Assembly (NCBI GenBank): GCA_037481655.1 | Contig: JBBFLF010000001.1 | Location: forward strand, 127,052 to 191,051 | DNA length: 64,000 bases | Origin: Desulfobaccales bacterium | GTDB taxonomy: Bacteria; Desulfobacterota; Desulfobaccia; Desulfobaccales; 0-14-0-80-60-11 | Direction of reading: 5' to 3' | Shown: piece after piece, positions 15,640 to 64,000 of the stretch | Layout of the letters: each line of letters opens with the position of its first letter | Numbering within the stretch: the first letter of the stretch is position 1 | The notes under the pieces: model-generated | Database searches by the model: none | The model's input: the letters and a program-made list of their open reading frames with translations, nothing else | What the model was told of the DNA's origin: nothing | Position numbers and translations under genes: made by a program

Positions 15640-15814
15640 GAGGGGAGGACCGGGGGACCGATGGCCCCCCGCCCTCCCCTCACACTCCCCTCCCAACCCC
15701 CCTTAATTTGGAAAACCGAGGCTTAAGCCTCGATTCACGCCGGAAAATATACGGGGTTGGGGGAGGGAGTCTGAGGGAGGGGGGAGGGGCCTGCGGTCCC
15801 TCGCCCCCTCCCTC
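15640..15814. repeat. Full element copy with a ~48-nt insertion at the central TTAA
   Basis: HP1 GAGGGGAGGACCGGGGG..CCCCCCGCCCTCCCCTC. The central arms CTCCCCTCCCAACCCCCCTTAA ... ACGGGGTTGGGGGAGGGAG are separated by tttggaaaaccgaggcttaagcctcgattcacgccggaaaatat. HP3 GAGGGAGGGGGGAGGGGCC..CCCTCGCCCCCTCCCTC. Confidence 0.75.
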
Positions 15815-17315: not shown

Positions 17316-17442
17316 GGGGGATGGGGGCGCAATGGCTACCCCGCCCTCTCCTCAGACTCCCCTCCCAATCCCCTTTAAGGGGTTGGGGGAGAGGGCTTGG
17401 GAGAGGGGGCAGGGGCCGTCGGCACCTGGCCCCCTCTCCCAA
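17316..17442. repeat. Full element copy
   Basis: Central CTCAGACTCCCCTCCCAATCCCCTTTAAGGGGTTGGGGGAGAGGG, then GGGAGAGGGGGCAGGGGCC-gtcg-GCACCTGGCCCCCTCTCCC. Confidence 0.8.
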
Positions 17443-22800: not shown

Positions 22801-22929
22801 GAGGGAAGGGCCGGGGGAGCGGTGGCTCCCCCACCCTCCCCTCAGACTCCCCTCCCCACCCCCCTTAAGGGGTTGGGGAGAGGGTGGGGGAGAGGGGCTA
22901 GAGGGCTATGCTCCCTGGCCCCCTCTCCC
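22801..22929. repeat. Full element copy
   Basis: GGGCCGGGGGAGC-ggtg-GCTCCCCCACCCTCCCC; central CTCAGACTCCCCTCCCCACCCCCCTTAAGGGGTTGGGGAGAGGG; then GGGGGAGAGGGGCTAGAGGGC-tatg-CTCCCTGGCCCCCTCTCCC. Confidence 0.8.
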
Positions 22930-23601
22930 GGTATCCTGCCAATTCCTCCCCGGCGGCGCCAATCCCCGGCGCAGCAGTTCAATGAGCTCCCGGCCCCGGA
23001 CGGCCACCTCCTCAGCCGCGGCCTGGTTCAACCCCAGGGTGACGTCAAAGGCGGGCATGGCCACGGCCTGCAGGAAGCGGTCAAAGACCGCGTCCAACAG
23101 AAAAATAGCCGCCTCCGGGGAGACCTCCGCCCGGATCTCCCCCCGGGAAAGGCCCTGGCGCACCAGGGAGGCGAAATAGTCGGCGGCGAAGCGGCGCACC
23201 GCGGCCAACAGCTCCTGGCGCCGAGGAGTGCGCTGGTCGTAGAGAATCCGCAGATACAGGCCGAAGAGCCGGGGGTGGCGCCGAAGGAAGTCCACTCCGG
23301 CCATCAGCGATTTTTCCAGCCGGGTGAAGACATCGGCCTCCCGGGTCTCTTCCTTGACGCCAAGCAGGGTGCGGCGCACCACCCCCACCGCCACCTCGAA
23401 AAGGTAGAGAAAAATTCCCTGCTTGTCGGTAAAATACTGATACAGGGAGCCCTTGGCGATGCCTGAGACCGCCACCACGGCGTTGAGGCTGGCCTGCTCG
23501 AACCCCTTGTCGGCAAACTCCGCCAGGGCCGCGTCGATGATCCGCTCCCGTTTTTCCGGGGGCAGATTGAGGAAGGTGGGGCGTACCGGGGAAGCTTCCA
23601 T
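22906..23601 (-). CDS. TetR-family transcriptional regulator
   Basis: N-terminal HTH: RERIIDAALAEFADKGFEQASLNAVVAVSGIAKGSLYQYFTDK. Confidence 0.85.
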   Translation of the reverse strand: MEASPVRPTFLNLPPEKRERIIDAALAEFADKGFEQASLNAVVAVSGIAKGSLYQYFTDKQGIFLYLFEVAVGVVRRTLLGVKEETREADVFTRLEKSLMAGVDFLRRHPRLFGLYLRILYDQRTPRRQELLAAVRRFAADYFASLVRQGLSRGEIRAEVSPEAAIFLLDAVFDRFLQAVAMPAFDVTLGLNQAAAEEVAVRGRELIELLRRGLAPPGRNWQDTGRGGQGA

Positions 23602-26987: not shown

Positions 26988-27452
26988 ATGACATCGGAGC
27001 AGTCGGACCAGGGCGCCGCCGCGTCCCTCACCGCGGTGGCCGACCGCTACTGTTTCGTCTGCGGCCCGGAGAATCCCCGGGGCCTCAGAATCAAAGTGCG
27101 CTATGAGCCCGAGGCGCAGGCGGCCTACACCGAGCTCACCCTCCCCCGGGAGTTCCAGGGCTGGGCCGACCTCATTCACGGCGGCATCCTGGCCACGCTT
27201 TTGGATGAGCTCATGGCCCATGCGGTGTGGCGCTTCGCCGGGCCCGGGGTCACCCTCTCCATGGAGGTGCGTTTTCACACTCCCTTGAAACCCGAGGAGG
27301 CCATCCGGGTGCGGGGAGTGCTCAGCCCCGGCAACGGCCGCCGCCGCCAGGCCGAGGCGGAGATTTTGCGGCTCTCCGACGGCAAGCGCATCGCCAGCGG
27401 CCGCAGCCGCTTCCTCCTCCTGGAGGAGAAGCCCACCTTCCGGGCCATTTAA
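26988..27452 (+). CDS. PaaI/hotdog-fold acyl-CoA thioesterase
   Basis: CFVCGPENPRGLRI, IHGGILATLLDELMAHA. The stop TAA (27450-27452) lies in the TTTAA core of a repeat element. Confidence 0.8.
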   Translation: MTSEQSDQGAAASLTAVADRYCFVCGPENPRGLRIKVRYEPEAQAAYTELTLPREFQGWADLIHGGILATLLDELMAHAVWRFAGPGVTLSMEVRFHTPLKPEEAIRVRGVLSPGNGRRRQAEAEILRLSDGKRIASGRSRFLLLEEKPTFRAI

Positions 27453-27517
27453 GGGGTTGGGGGAGAGGGTTTGGGAGAGGGGGCAGGGGGCCACTGCTCC
27501 CTGGCCCCCTCTCCCAA
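27449..27517. repeat. Half element (right-hand orientation), 3' of the thioesterase gene; near-exact reverse complement of 26799-26872
   Basis: TTTAAGGGGTTGGGGGAGAGGGT + TTGGGAGAGGGGGCAGGGGGCC-act-GCTCCCTGGCCCCCTCTCCCAA. Confidence 0.8.
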
Positions 27518-27557
27518 AAACCTTGTGGAATAATCTCTCCTTGCTCCCAGACCGCCC

Positions 27558-40544: not shown

Positions 40545-43385
40545 ATGCTCAGCGACCAGATCATCATCCGGGGCGCCCGGGAGCACAATCTCAAAAACCT
40601 GGACCTGGAGCTCCCCCGGCAGAAGTTCATCGTCATCACCGGGGTCTCCGGCTCCGGCAAGTCCACCCTGGCCTTCGACATCCTCTATGCCGAGGGCCAG
40701 CGGCGCTACGTGGAGAGCCTGTCGGCCTATGCCCGGCAGTTTCTGGAGCTCATGGACAAGCCGGACGTGGAGTACATCGAGGGCCTTTCCCCAGCCATCG
40801 CCATCGAGCAGCGCAGCGCCTCCCGCAACCCCCGCTCCACCGTGGCCACCGCCACCGAGATCTACGATTACCTGCGGGTGCTCTTTGCCCGGGTGGGCAC
40901 CCCCACCTGCCCCCGCTGCGGGGTGCCCATCGCCTCCCTCTCGGTGTCCCAGATGGTGGACCGCCTCCTGGAACTCCCCGCCGGTACCCGCTTCACCGTT
41001 CTGGCCCCAGTGGTGGTGAACCGCAAAGGGGAGCACCGGGCCCTCCTGGAGCGCCTGGCCCGGGAGGGCTTCACTCGCATCCGCCTGAACGGCGAGCTGG
41101 TGGAGCTGGAGGAGCTGCCGCCCCTGGACAAGAACAAGCGCCACACCATCGAGGCGGTGGTGGACCGCCTGGTGGTGAAGGAGGATCTGGCCCCCCGCCT
41201 CACCGACTCCCTGGAGCTGGCCCTGAAGCTGGCCGAGGGCACGGTGCGCATCGCCTTGCAGGAGGGGGAGGAGTTCATCTTCAGCGACAAATTCGCCTGC
41301 GACCTCTGCGGCCTCAGTCTGCCGGAGATCACCCCGCAGCTCTTCTCCTTCAACAGCCCCCAAGGCGCCTGCCCCGCCTGCTCCGGGCTGGGGAACCGCT
41401 TGGTGGTGGACCCGGACCTGGTGGTGCCTAACCCCGATCTCTCCCTCCGGGAGGGGGCCATCCGGCCCTGGTCCCGGCAACCCCCCGTCCGTCACCAGGA
41501 GCTCCTGGAGGCCCTGGAGAAGCATTACGGCTTTTCCAGCCGCACCCCCTTCAGGCTCCTGGATGAGGAGGTCAAACGGGCGCTCCTATATGGCTCCCAG
41601 GGCGCCAATATCGACTTTTTCACCGAACATGGCCACCGGCGCCACTTCCTGCCCCGGCCTTTTCCAGGGGTCATCCCTTGGCTGGAGGAGCGCTACCGGG
41701 AGACGGAGTCCTCTTTCCTGCGGGAGGAGATCGAGCAGTACATGACCTGGCAGCCCTGCCCCACCTGCGGGGGGGCCAGGCTCCGGCCCGAGGCCCTGGC
41801 GGTGAAGCTGGGGGGCCTCAACATCAGCGAGGTGACCGGCTTCAGCGTGGCCCAGGCCTTGAGTTGGTTCAAGGAGCTCAGCCTCACTCCCCGCCAGGCC
41901 CAGATCGCCCGCCGGGTGTTGAAGGAGATCACCGAGCGCCTGGGGTTTTTGCTGGAGGTGGGGCTGGACTACCTCACCCTCAACCGGGCCACCGCCACCC
42001 TGGCCGGGGGTGAGGCCCAGCGCATCCGGCTGGCCACCCAGATCGGCTCCAAGCTCTCCGGGGTGCTCTACATCCTGGATGAGCCCAGCATCGGCCTCCA
42101 TCCCCGGGATACGGCCCGGCTCCTCAAGACGCTCAAGGTGCTCCGGGACCTGGGAAACACCGTCATCGTGGTGGAGCATGACCCGGAGACCATCCGCCAG
42201 GCGGACTTTGTGGTGGACATGGGCCCCGGGGCCGGCCGCCACGGCGGCGAGGCCGTCTTTACCGGGCCCCCGGCCCGCCTCCTCAAGGCCGACACCCTGA
42301 CCGGTCTTTATCTCTCGGGCCGCCGGGAGATCGCCGTGCCCGCCGTGCGGCGCACCCCCACCGGCTGGCTGGAGCTTAGCGGCGCCGCGGGCCACAACCT
42401 GAAGGAGGTCACCGTCCGCATCCCCTTGGGGGTCCTCACCTGCGTCACCGGGGTCTCCGGCTCCGGCAAGAGCACTCTGGTGATGGACACCTTATATCCG
42501 GCCCTGCGCCAGAAGCTCTACCGGGCCCGGGTGCCCGCCGCGCCCTATCGGGAGCTTTCCGGGAGCGAACAGCTGGACAAGGTCATTCACATCGACCAGA
42601 GCCCCATCGGCCGCACCCCCCGGTCCAACCCGGCCACCTACTCCGGGGTCTTCACCCTCATCCGGGAGCTCTTCTCCCAGGTGCCTGAGGCGCGGCTCAG
42701 GGGCTACAAGCCGGGCCGCTTCAGCTTCAATGTCAAGGGCGGCCGCTGCGAGGCCTGCCGGGGCGAAGGCATCAACAAGATCGAGATGCACTTCCTGCCG
42801 GACGTCTATGTGAAGTGCGAGGTCTGCCACGGCCTGCGCTACAACCCCAGCACCCTGGAGATCCGCTACAAGGGCCTCAACATCGCCGAGGTCCTGGAGC
42901 TCACCGTGGACCAGGCCCTGGAGGTCTTTGGGCCGGTGCCGGCGCTCCGGGACCGCCTCACCACCCTGGCGGACGTGGGCCTGGGCTACGTGCAGCTGGG
43001 GCAGTCCGCCACTACCCTGTCCGGCGGCGAGGCCCAGCGCCTCAAACTCTCCCGGGAGCTGGCCCGCCGGGCCACCGGCCGCACCCTCTACATCCTGGAT
43101 GAGCCCACCACGGGCCTGCACCTGGCGGACATCGAGAAGCTCCTCCAGGTCCTCAACCGCCTGGTGGAGGCCGGCAACACCGTCATCGTCATCGAGCACC
43201 ACCTGGACGTCATCAAGACCGCGGACTATCTCATCGATCTCGGCCCTGAAGGCGGCGATGCCGGCGGCCGGGTAGTGGCCGTGGGCCCGCCGGAATTCGT
43301 GGCCGAAGTGCCGGAATCCCACACCGGCCGTTTCCTCAAGCCCCTCCTCCCCCTGTCTCCCCGGCGGCGGGCGGCGGCCAACTGA
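40545..43385 (+). CDS. uvrA: Excinuclease ABC subunit A
   Basis: 946 aa. [11 protein letters not shown], two Walker A ([10 protein letters not shown]) and signature (LSGGEAQR) sets, zinc-finger Cys pairs. Confidence 0.96.
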
Positions 43386-46373: not shown

Positions 46374-46440
46374 GGAAAGGGAGGGGCGGGGGCGAAAATT
46401 CCCTCCCCACTCTCCCAGACCCTCTCCCCCAGCCCCTTAA
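46374..46440. repeat. Half element (left-hand orientation)
   Basis: GGGAAAGGGAGGGGCGGGGGCG-aaaatt-CCCTCCCCACTCTCCC + AGACCCTCTCCCCCAGCCCCTTAA. Confidence 0.65.
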
Positions 46441-46630
46441 ATCTTTTGCATGCACCCAATGGAATTCTTGGCCCCGATGGCCCGAAGCTGAGGTGGCGGG
46501 GAGGGGAAATTTGAGAGGGGGCGGAGAGCCTTCTTACCCGCAGATCCCCCCCAAAAATCTCTTTCGCCCCGGTCTCAGTTAAGAAGAGCCGGGGGCCCGG
46601 CCTGTTTCACTTAGCCCCCGGTGGCGCTCG

Positions 46631-50113: not shown

Positions 50114-51010
50114 TTATTCGACGTTGTGGATCTGTTCCCGGAGACGCTCCAGGAGGCCCTTGGCGGTGAGCACCTCCTGGGTGATGCTGAGGTCGGAGGC
50201 CTTGGCGCCGATGGTGTTCACCTCCCGGAGCATCTCCTGCACCAGAAATTCCAGCCGCCGGCCCACCGGCCCGCCGCCGGCCAAAAGCTCCCGGAATTGC
50301 CCCACGTGACTCTCCAGCCGGGCCAGCTCTTCCGAGACATCCCGGCGTTCCGCCAGGAAAGCCAGCTCCTGGGCCAGCCGGGCGTCCTCCACTTCCCCCA
50401 CCTCGCCCTTGAGCTCTTCCAGCCGGGCGAGGATCTTCTGCCGCCAGGCCTCGGGGCTGACGGTGGCCTGCGCCTGGATGCGGGCCGCCGCCCCGGCCAG
50501 CTCCTCCAGGTGGCGGCTTAGGTCGGCCCGCAGGGCCTCGCCTTCGGCCCGGCGCATCTCCTCCAGGGCGTCCAGGGCCTGGTGGAGGGCCTGCGCCAGG
50601 ATGCTCCAGGTCTCCTCCAGATCCGGGGCCTCCCGTTCCCGGGTGATGAGCCAGTCGGCGAAGCGCAGCAGGTGCTCCAGCCGAAGGGGCTCCGTAAGCC
50701 CGGCCACAGCCTTGAGCTCGGTGAGCACCACCACTGCCTGGGCCGCCAGCCCCGCGTCCAGCTTCAGGCCCCCACCGGCCCCGGGTTTGCTCTCATAGGA
50801 GAGCTGCATCTCCACCCGGCCCCGGTTGAGGCGGGCTTTGAGCGCCTGGCGGCAGCGGTCCTCCAGGGCCCACAGATGCCGGGGCAGATTGAGGGCCAGG
50901 TCCAGGAAGCGGTGGTTGAGGCTCTTGAGCTCCACCGTCCAGCGCTGGGTGGGCCCCTCGGCCTCACCCCGGCCGTAACCGGTCATGCTCCTCAGGACAT
51001 CTGTCGCCAT
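50114..51010 (-). CDS. yicC: YicC-family protein (stress-induced; endoribonuclease family)
   Basis: SMTGYGRGE, KS.NHRFLD, C-terminal EVNTIG.KA......V...K...E..REQ..NVE. The start could instead be the internal Met at 50986. Confidence 0.85.
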   Translation of the reverse strand: MATDVLRSMTGYGRGEAEGPTQRWTVELKSLNHRFLDLALNLPRHLWALEDRCRQALKARLNRGRVEMQLSYESKPGAGGGLKLDAGLAAQAVVVLTELKAVAGLTEPLRLEHLLRFADWLITREREAPDLEETWSILAQALHQALDALEEMRRAEGEALRADLSRHLEELAGAAARIQAQATVSPEAWRQKILARLEELKGEVGEVEDARLAQELAFLAERRDVSEELARLESHVGQFRELLAGGGPVGRRLEFLVQEMLREVNTIGAKASDLSITQEVLTAKGLLERLREQIHNVE

Positions 51011-51531
51011 TGCCGTATTTGCCAGAGATACTTCTGCCGCACCCGGTTCAGCCAGGAAAGCAGGGGCTCACTGGCATAATCCGGATAGGTCCAGGGCAGG
51101 GGAGTAAAACCTCCCCGGGAGGCCACCAAAGTCACCTCGCCGTAAATTCCTTGGGACAGGAAGAGACGATGGCGGAAGTTCTTGCCGGTGGCCAGTACCA
51201 GGCGCTCCCCGGTGAGGTAGCCCACGTCCAGGTTAAGCAACCGCCGCCCCCCCAGGCTGAGGGCCTGCTCCAGACGGAGGCTGACATGCTTCCCGTGGGA
51301 CAGGAATTCCGGGTCCGCCAGGTGAAGGAAAGAGGCCAGGCAGCGCTCCAGGCCGGCCCCCATCTCCGGGACATAGTAGTCGCTGTGGCTGAAGGGCCAC
51401 CAGGGGCTCACCATATCCGGGGGGCCAAAATACTCCGCCAGCCAAGCCAAGGCCCGGGGAGCCAACTCCCGGCGCACGGTCAGGAGGCTCGCCACCGGCT
51501 TCACCGGCACAGGCGGCCTGGGCTCACTCAT
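50992..51531 (-). CDS. DUF4416-like protein
   Basis: 179 aa. F.HSDYY..EMG..L.R....F pattern remembered for DUF4416. Located upstream of yicC. Confidence 0.5.
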   Translation of the reverse strand: MSEPRPPVPVKPVASLLTVRRELAPRALAWLAEYFGPPDMVSPWWPFSHSDYYVPEMGAGLERCLASFLHLADPEFLSHGKHVSLRLEQALSLGGRRLLNLDVGYLTGERLVLATGKNFRHRLFLSQGIYGEVTLVASRGGFTPLPWTYPDYASEPLLSWLNRVRQKYLWQIRQWRQMS

Positions 51532-51591
51532 GCCTCCTCCGATAAGGACCTTATCTTAAGGGACCCCGCCTGGGAAAGCAATGAAAATTTC

Positions 51592-51609
51592 TTGTGAAAA
51601 TATGCACAG
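51592..51609. promoter_or_regulatory. Rex-box-like site
   Basis: TTGTGAAAATATGCACAG versus the Rex consensus TTGTGAA-N4-TTCACAA: the left half is perfect and the right half matches 5/7. It lies 61-78 nt upstream of the DUF4416 gene start (51531). Confidence 0.4.
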
Positions 51610-51659
51610 TTACCAGACTCAGGTCTCTACACGTTCTTAAGGCAAAGAGCCGCGGGACT

Positions 51660-51691
51660 AAAACGGCAGGGCCTGGGGATCCGGCCCTGCC
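51660..51691 (-). terminator. Rho-independent-type terminator closing the 52308-to-51660 minus-strand unit
   Basis: Perfect 9-bp stem GGCAGGGCC (51665-51673) / GGCCCTGCC (51683-51691). On the minus strand it is followed by GTTTTAG. Confidence 0.5.
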
Positions 51692-51757: not shown

Positions 51758-51870
51758 GTCGCGTCGTGAGAGGCGGTCAGGCCATCTGCAGCTGCCCCAA
51801 ACTCCCATTAAATATACTACTCAATACTCAACGTCGCGTCGTGAGAGGCGGTCAGGCCATCTGCAGCTGC
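51758..51870. CRISPR. CRISPR-like mini-array: two identical 38-nt direct repeats and one 37-nt spacer
   Basis: GTCGCGTCGTGAGAGGCGGTCAGGCCATCTGCAGCTGC occurs at 51758-51795 and 51833-51870 (38/38 identical). The spacer CCCAAACTCCCATTAAATATACTACTCAATACTCAAC (51796-51832) is 35% GC with no G. No cas gene is in the window and no third repeat was found. Confidence 0.35.
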
Positions 51871-52172
51871 ACTACCTCCACCAGGTTCTCCTGAAACAAG
51901 ACCTCCTGAACTTGTGAGATCTCCCTCTCCTTAAACTCCTCCAGGGATTCGCCCCTCAGCTCCGGCACAATCTCCCAGGAGCGTGGTCCGTTTTCCGTCC
52001 AGACAACGCATTCCAGGGACCGGTCCTCTTCCACCTTGCCGCGTTTCCAGCCCGCACATCCCGGGATGCACCGGAGGCCCAGCTCCGCCCGGACGCATTT
52101 CTCAAAGAGCATCAACACCCCCTTGCTGATGTGAGGAGCCTGTCGACCTGCCACCCTCTTGGCCATGGGCAT
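51852..52172 (-). CDS. Hypothetical 106-aa ORF; C-terminal half is HicB/UPF0150-like, N-terminal part resembles a HicA C-terminus (possible degenerate hicAB)
   Basis: LECVVWTENGPRSWEIVPELRGESLEEFKE resembles the HicB N-domain (Y.V....dG.y.a.vPeLpG..t.G.TleEa). PHISKGVLMLFEKCVRAELGL resembles the HicA tail. The last 19 nt of the ORF lie inside repeat 2. Confidence 0.3.
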   Translation of the reverse strand: MPMAKRVAGRQAPHISKGVLMLFEKCVRAELGLRCIPGCAGWKRGKVEEDRSLECVVWTENGPRSWEIVPELRGESLEEFKEREISQVQEVLFQENLVEVVQLQMA

Positions 52173-52280: not shown

Positions 52281-52308
52281 ATTATAGCAAAGAAAACTGT
52301 TGCAGCAA
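52281..52308 (-). promoter_or_regulatory. Sigma70-type promoter (minus strand) for the HicB-like ORF / repeat unit
   Basis: Minus strand reads TTGCTG (52308-52303), 16 nt, TATAAT (52286-52281), within an AT-rich patch. Confidence 0.45.
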
Positions 52309-52591
52309 CTTTTTTTCACCACGATCTGCAGCCCTTGGCGCCGGTGGGAGCTCCTGATATAGTGGAAGAAAAACCGGGAGGGGAACGCCGGGAAAATTTC
52401 CGCAGAGGTCGGAGAACCGGTCCCAGGGGATACCCCCCGCCCGGCCCGCCTCAGCCGGCCGTCTTAAACTCCCTCCCCTGATCCTTTGGGGAAACAGGCA
52501 GGAAGAAGGGGCATGCCTCGCCCCCATGGCCCAATTCCCAGGGAATTTTCGCCCCCATGTCCCCCGCGGCATTTGGGGGAAGGAGAACTTC

Positions 52592-61349: not shown

Positions 61350-63737
<2,388 letters not shown>

Positions 63738-64000
63738 CCGCCGCTCCTTTGGGAGGTCAAGGGGATGTGAGCCTACCTTCGGATCAGGACAGGTCCCGGG
63801 AGTCATTCAGGGTGGCGGGAAGGTGATCTCAGGCTTCATGGACAGACCGTAGTTCCATTTAAGGGGCTTCCAGAAGCCCTGTCAAGCCAATAAGGAAAAG
63901 GGCGGAATTTTTCTGGGTCGGATATTGGACGGTTATGGATAAGAATTTGAACCGGCCGCCCTTCGGGCCCAGGGCGGCCGGTCAGCGGGAAAAAGGCTTA

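Follow-up and report, generated by a model that had tools for sequence, protein, structure and literature searches.

Organization of the locus

The window, i.e., the whole 64-kb stretch of Desulfobaccales DNA that was analysed, contains a short repeat structure at the 3' end of a small gene on the minus strand. The 38-mer GTCGCGTCGTGAGAGGCGGTCAGGCCATCTGCAGCTGC is present twice, at 51758-51795 and at 51833-51870, in copies that are 100% identical, and between the two copies lies a 37-nt segment, CCCAAACTCCCATTAAATATACTACTCAATACTCAAC, at 51796-51832. This confirmed, with the same coordinates, the two identical 38-nt direct repeats around a 37-nt segment that had been reported in the initial annotation of this DNA. 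The features of the locus are as follows:

51660-51691, minus strand: G+C-rich hairpin followed by GTTTT, from its sequence the likely terminator of the small gene, kept in five related loci (L006, L004, L001, L007, and L009)
51758-51795, minus strand: R2, the gene-distal copy of the 38-bp target, identical to R1
51796-51832, minus strand: S, the inserted segment, which reads GTTGAGTATTGAGTAGTATATTTAATGGGAGTTTGGG and is missing from every related locus
51833-51870, minus strand: R1, the gene-proximal copy and native 3' end of the small gene, with a coding half that is kept in all orthologues
51833-51851, minus strand: the first 19 nt of the 3' untranslated region (3'UTR), within R1
51852-51854, minus strand: TGA stop codon, within R1
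51855-51870, minus strand: the last 16 nt of the coding sequence, within R1
51852-52112, minus strand: conserved small Cys-rich gene that encodes 86 aa from M21 and is preceded by a good AAGGGGG Shine-Dalgarno sequence
52281-52308, minus strand: promoter-like TTGCTG-16-TATAAT upstream of the small gene, a weak candidate

Both GenBank and the list of open reading frames (ORFs) give the small gene an earlier start (104-106 aa, up to 52172), which is 18-20 codons too early in comparison with the orthologues. Since these begin at M21 of the window ORF, and this position is preceded by AAGGGGG, a gene of 86 aa at 51852-52112 is likely. A search of 5.8 billion proteins with its product yielded five clusters at 90% identity. 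One of these is the GenBank protein WHT07_00855 of a “Desulfobaccales bacterium” metagenome-assembled genome (MAG), which is 100% identical; the other four contain proteins of 83-86 aa that are 61-88% identical, with 46 invariant positions including four cysteines. No relatives of the 86-aa protein were found in Pfam, NCBIfam, or the PDB. The gene order is kept in every contig recovered for the orthologues: hypA, queE, and queC occupy one side, the other being formed by the small gene, DUF4416, yicC, remA, and gmk, and in those contigs the small gene is always located between hypA and the DUF4416 gene. On sequence evidence, the small minus-strand ORF is a real gene. Its protein is unchanged by the structure described here, since the final stretch of the coding sequence is preserved, together with its stop codon, in the upstream copy R1. 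Between the structure and the DUF4416 gene (50992-51531), at 51556-51620 on the minus strand, a stretch of ~50 nt, GTCTGGTAACTGTGCATATTTTCACAAGAAATTTTCATTGCTTTCCC, is nearly invariant between loci within flanking DNA that is otherwise unalignable across them; it contains ATTTTCA twice and is probably the promoter or operator of the DUF4416-yicC-remA-gmk operon.

The 38-bp repeat is thus made up of 16 nt of conserved coding sequence, a stop codon, and 19 nt of untranslated region, i.e., of ordinary chromosomal sequence. Its borders are unambiguous, with T and G as the bases preceding the two copies and G and A as the bases following them. The duplicated unit reads GCAGC...GCGAC on the minus strand and GTCGC...GCTGC on the plus strand and, consequently, starts with G and ends with C. 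Which of R1 and R2 is the “new” copy cannot be defined. The two copies are the sole close direct-repeat pair of at least 20 nt in the 64 kb, apart from one weak pair of 21 nt, and no tandem array was found elsewhere in the window. The initial annotation had proposed a search for further copies of the 38-mer: none exists within the 64-kb window at up to 3 mismatches (nor did any occur in 100 dinucleotide shuffles), and the exact 38-mer has no match in the GTDB species genomes. Because the repeat is the native end of a gene and no other copy was found, it does not represent a dedicated repeat family. Neither the repeat (z = -0.2 and +1.0 for its two orientations) nor the whole unit gave a fold signal. 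Rfam has no match at the locus, and a tRNA or tmRNA that could act as an integration target was not found in the window; the only element that Rfam recognized in the window is a full-length bacterial RNase P RNA class A at 1551-1917 on the plus strand (285 bits).

The initial annotation had also placed the repeats within a transcription unit with its own promoter and terminator. The hairpin at 51660-51691 is indeed good and conserved, but neither of the two sites passed a consensus scan: the hairpin is followed by only 4 T, which is under the T-run threshold, and the promoter-like sequence at 52281-52308, the -10 hexamer of which is kept in L007, did not reach the threshold either. From their sequences, it is plausible that both the promoter and the terminator are real. 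Since the hairpin, located downstream of the second copy, is the likely terminator, R1-S-R2 most likely lies inside the 3'UTR of the small gene and would be transcribed together with it. The promoter region (52290-52316) also contains a second cluster of differences between the window and its sister strains.

Empty sites in related loci

The window was aligned with related loci over the stretch that separates the end of the small gene from the DUF4416 start. All six of these loci (L007, L009, L006, L004, L001, and L005) possess a single copy of the site and lack the 37-nt segment. Two belong to sister strains: L007 (JGI 3300045136) is 97.6% identical to the window over ~920 nt and encodes an identical small protein, and L009 (GCA_900118445.1) is ~97-98% identical, with an identical DUF4416 protein. 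In both, the sequence reads ...CAGCTGCAGATGGCCTGAC...GCAGAGTGAAGTG..., so that the site runs directly into the flank that follows R2 in the window; this downstream flank, AGAGTGAAGTG, is the same after the empty site of L007 and L009 as after R2. The other four loci represent more distant syntenic lineages and are also without the segment. Because the sister strains and four distant lineages have one copy and no S, the state of the window is, as judged from this alignment, a derived insertion of 75 bp, consisting of a 37-bp insert and a 38-bp target duplication. Read in the same way, the insertion is recent and is a single event with target duplication. The insertion, the duplication of its target, the borders, and the empty site in relatives are, therefore, established.

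The initial annotation had reasoned that orthologous loci would show either spacer variation, as in a CRISPR array, or the same 113 bp conserved as a unit, which would speak against one. Neither was observed, as all six loci have a single copy and no spacer; there is no spacer turnover, as foreseen for the second case, but the 113 bp are not conserved.

The site in the sister strains differs from the repeat of the window by 5-6 substitutions and 1 indel within 20 non-coding nt, and L007 and L009 differ from each other by 2 substitutions in the same 20 nt after the stop codon. On comparison of these alleles, the non-coding half of the site (the 20 nt after the stop codon; 51833-51851) is a local mutational hot spot. 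An empty site with the exact allele of the window was found neither in the JGI metagenomes (30-nt core), nor in IMG/VR (24-nt core), nor in the GTDB species genomes (exact 38-mer).

Composition and origin of the inserted segment

Thirteen of the 37 nt of S are G or C, so that it ranks among the lowest 0.4% of all 37-nt windows in this DNA of 65% G+C. The composition given in the initial annotation (a spacer of 35% GC, G-free on the plus strand) was confirmed. The absence of G on the plus strand holds for S, but a G-free run is not in itself unique, as the longest such run in the window measures 38 nt and that of S is tied with it. Other long G-free or C-free runs in the window, and several hits of TRF, are due to a dispersed family of G-rich/C-rich palindromic intergenic sequences centred on TTAAGGGG. 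This family has at least 5 copies in the 64 kb (15672-15709, 17340-17440, 22830-22930, 27447-27520, and 46390-46450), is exemplified by CCCCTCCCAA(T/C)CCCCTTTAAGGGGTTGGGGGAGAGGG(T/C)TTGGGAGAGGGGGCAGGGGCC...GGCCCCCTCTCCC, and is REP-like or terminator-like.

On the minus strand, S consists of 13 G, 9 A, 15 T, and no C, and contains TTGAGTA twice in tandem. It has no coding capacity, and neither a second copy nor a homologue of it was found within the window. By its composition (35% vs. 65% GC) S looks foreign. A search of the spacer against phage, plasmid, and metagenome data, as proposed in the initial annotation, yielded no protospacer: the exact 37-mer has no match in IMG/VR or the JGI metagenomes, three overlapping 22-mers have none in IMG/VR, and blastn against 50,697 phage (INPHARED) and 72,556 plasmid (PLSDB) records returned partial hits at chance level (E of at least 1). 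The central 20-mer has one match, of 22 nt, among 185,579 GTDB species genomes. It is located in a Prevotella MAG, does not extend further, and is at the level expected by chance, and we rejected it as the source of S.

A symmetric source of 35% GC would give ~6 G and ~6 C in a segment of this length, and a phage fragment taken at random would not typically have a C-free strand. On the minus strand, the proportion of G in S (35%) equals the G content of the genome, C is at 0%, and T amounts to 41%, compared to ~50% for genomic C+T. This composition is that expected from complete deamination of the cytosines of a single strand, with a likelihood ratio, by our own calculation and computed after seeing the data, of ~7,000 to 1 relative to a symmetric source of 35% GC. 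S might, then, derive not from phage DNA but from a strand of native GC content whose cytosines had all become thymines prior to capture, and the locus would be a CRISPR locus caught at birth in nature; we regard this reading, which is based on base composition, as very improbable. We searched for the degenerate form of S in which each T is replaced by Y, GYYGAGYAYYGAGYAGYAYAYYYAAYGGGAGYYYGGG, in the window and in IMG/VR, and scanned the window and the fetched loci for it with tolerance for mismatches; the only match in the window, IMG/VR, and the fetched loci was the insert itself. If true, the deamination reading would connect the prespacer pool with a deaminase acting on single-strand DNA, or with debris of deaminated DNA.

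Off-target spacer integration as the preferred explanation

The lengths of the target duplication and of the insert both fall inside the ranges of CRISPR repeats and spacers. Known prokaryotic transposases produce target duplications of 2-15 bp, those of casposons being 14-15 bp, and site-specific integrases leave att duplications around kb-sized elements. To our knowledge, the Cas1-Cas2 spacer integrase is the one known machine that combines a stagger of ~25-50 bp with an insert of ~30-40 bp. We tentatively explain R1-S-R2 as the footprint of a single ectopic spacer integration by Cas1-Cas2, i.e., as a natural “neo-CRISPR,” and estimate the probability of this reading at roughly 45%. We infer the enzyme, as we do the transcription and the neutrality of the insertion.

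In the mechanism that we envisage, a Cas1-Cas2 integrase loaded with a prespacer of ~37 bp would have attacked the chromosome at the 3' boundary of the small gene, on one G residue in each strand, the two being 38 bp apart. Gap filling would then have copied the intervening 38 bp, producing a repeat-spacer-repeat unit from chromosomal sequence. The insertion would have ended up in the 3'UTR ahead of the terminator, where it would be co-transcribed but inert. From the sequence of the unit, the insertion is probably inert indeed, as no cognate repeat for a Cas6-type nuclease and no growth of the array are evident.

Several lines of evidence from the literature are consistent with this mechanism. 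In vitro, the off-target sites of Cas1-Cas2 of P. furiosus share features with repeats, and the enzyme attacks at sites with a constant spacing and with G and C as preferred border bases (PMC6698737). The G...C borders of the 38-bp unit fit this preference, with an expectation by chance that we estimate ourselves at ~0.1; the locus is a single event, however, and as such lends no statistical support to a site preference. According to Nivala et al. (2018), off-target integration takes place elsewhere in the E. coli genome and spawns new arrays there, and there is circumstantial evidence for it in two other species. CRISPR repeats span 23-55 bp, and in Desulfobacca acetoxidans, the type species of the order to which the source MAG is assigned, 6 out of 7 CRISPRs average 37.45 bp per repeat (PMC5011713). 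By analogy, repeats of this length would be compatible with a ruler of ~38 bp in the lineage. Because the G...C borders fit, and both the geometry and the repeat length of D. acetoxidans are suitable, ectopic spacer integration is the explanation that we prefer for the locus. Points against it are that neither a cas gene nor another array was found in the 64 kb, that S has no protospacer in the collections searched and is C-free on one strand, and that the empty site of the sister strains is not identical to the repeat of the window. The combination by which a neo-CRISPR is recognized, a spacer-sized insert with a target duplication at a site that is unoccupied in relatives, is present here, with six such relatives.

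Alternative explanations

A derived insertion with target duplication would also be explained by repair in which Cas proteins played no part. Two nicks, or a staggered double-strand break, 38 bp apart would have been filled in at both ends, and the ends rejoined with a captured or newly made filler of 37 bp, either in a reaction like non-homologous end joining (NHEJ) or by an unknown integrase. The absence of a cas gene from the window is in line with such a course of events, as is the odd nature of S, which is C-free, of low complexity, and carries TTGAGTA twice, as a filler or a damaged single-stranded fragment might. However, several independent steps would be needed to arrive at lengths like those of repeats and spacers together with G...C borders, and no microhomology is visible at the junctions of the insert. 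We also know of no bacterial precedent for a fill-in duplication of 38 bp combined with a filler of 37 bp, and consider Cas-independent repair an unlikely alternative to spacer integration by Cas1-Cas2.

The source of the DNA is a metagenome-assembled genome, S has no match anywhere we searched, and no independent sample with S was found in the JGI metagenomes. An artefact has, therefore, to be considered, either of the assembly, as a false loop in its graph, or of the library, as a chimeric molecule. The Logan contigs of run SRR33387333 match the window at 100% identity, L010 over 2772 nt and L008 over 3296 nt. L010 ends at position 30 of the repeat and L008 begins at position 9. The Logan graph uses k=31, and positions 30 and 9 coincide exactly with the branch points that a 38-nt repeat creates at this k, i.e., the last k-mer with a unique left flank and the first k-mer with a unique right flank. 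A site with a single context would not be expected to break there, and a strain variant would be expected to cause a break at the variant base. Because the contigs break at the branch points, the 38-mer occurs in the reads of SRR33387333 with two different flanks on its left and two on its right. SRR33387333 may be the run from which the MAG was obtained; the assembler is thus independent, the library perhaps not. In addition, we know of no failure mode of assemblers or libraries that would place an exact 38-bp duplication around a foreign insert. At the level of assembled sequence, the observation is confirmed as real, with two assemblers supporting the structure, and we consider an artefact very unlikely.

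Gene 3' ends are typical targets of integrases, and the repeat overlaps and rebuilds such an end. The copies could, therefore, be the att cores of a site-specifically integrated element, nearly the whole of which was later deleted. This deletion would have had to leave 37 bp while sparing both 38-bp cores perfectly, S contains no remnant of an integrase, the core (24 nt) is present in no virus of IMG/VR, and none of the six related loci has an element at this site; a remnant of this kind is, in our view, highly improbable. An intact att-bounded element was rejected, with only 37 nt between the copies and neither an integrase gene nor cargo. We also rejected a transposable element or MITE: S occurs as a single copy, its ends (GTTGAG.../...TTTGGG) are not inverted repeats, and the duplication measures 38 bp. 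A local tandem duplication of 75 bp, of which the locus might have been a remnant according to the initial annotation, is excluded, as neither the empty sites nor any other part of the window contains a counterpart of the 37 nt. Paired protein-binding sites and a small-RNA locus unrelated to CRISPR, the two other options that it listed, gained no support.

The initial annotation favored an orphan CRISPR array that is missed by standard finders. The direct repeats and the segment (38/37/38 nt) fit the 23-55 nt format of CRISPR arrays, with the minimum repeat number of two, and the start of the repeat, GTCGC, was taken to resemble that of type I repeats. This likeness extends over 5-6 nt, but the other end lacks the ...GAAAC-type 3' handle that is typical of such repeats. 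The statement that no cas gene occurs in the 64 kb was borne out by PADLOC, which detected no Cas family among the 130 ORFs of at least 150 aa in the window, a size limit that leaves out smaller proteins such as Cas2, and no other CRISPR array was found within the 64 kb. PADLOC did return defence-like hits at 40545-43382 on the plus strand and at 61350-63803 on the minus strand, neither of which represents a defence gene. The mad3/mad8 hits correspond to a 946-aa ABC ATPase that is UvrA-like, as judged from its size and domain type; the RtcR hits on sigma-54-type activators, among them “CARF_AAA_HTH” on a protein of 817 aa, are confined to the AAA+/HTH part and do not include a CARF domain. 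Despite its suitable repeat and spacer lengths and its position between a promoter-like site and a terminator-like hairpin, a working mini-array, with a transcript that is processed and then serves in trans the Cas proteins of another locus, is the least credible of these alternatives, as its repeat is a conserved gene end without a repeat family, fold signal, or other copy, no cas gene is present in the 64 kb, and the relatives show empty sites only and no spacer turnover. The CRISPR-like geometry is genuine and probably the most telling property of the locus; it suggests that the link to CRISPR biology should be kept, but not the reading as a functional mini-array.

Implications

If the integrase reading is true, the locus would represent a natural, population-fixed case of off-target integration for which the empty site is preserved in sister strains. 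Earlier evidence for off-target integration was mostly experimental, i.e., from overexpression or in vitro work, or circumstantial. The case would, therefore, bear on the de novo origin of CRISPR arrays and on the mutational cost of the adaptation module, and genomes could be screened for scars of this kind as a record of earlier Cas1-Cas2 activity. For two-repeat “mini-arrays,” orthologous loci should be compared before the label CRISPR is applied. If the reading fails, what is left is a neutral 75-bp indel in a 3'UTR, which is of little wider interest.

Comparison with known systems

With transposons and casposons the locus has in common an insert flanked by a direct target duplication that results from staggered strand transfer. 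Their duplications are, however, 2-15 bp long, compared to 38 bp here, and S has neither terminal inverted repeats nor other copies. The mini-arrays of viruses and other mobile genetic elements (MGEs) are likewise minimal repeat-spacer-repeat units away from cas genes. Their repeats are copied from host CRISPRs and reside in mobile elements, whereas the unit described here consists of chromosomal sequence from the site itself and lies in a conserved neighbourhood of housekeeping genes. Canonical and orphan CRISPR arrays share with it the 38-nt direct repeats, the 37-nt unique spacer, and the probable transcription, but this locus has two repeats, no leader, no repeat family, and no cas genes in the 64 kb.

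The resemblance to the neo-CRISPRs (Nivala et al., 2018; PMC6698737) comprises a spacer-sized insert, a duplicated genomic sequence of repeat size, G/C borders, and an empty site, all at a non-CRISPR location without a leader or nearby cas genes. The locus would differ from them in being naturally fixed in an uncultured Desulfobaccales population rather than obtained by overexpression or in vitro, and its spacer is strand-specifically C-free.
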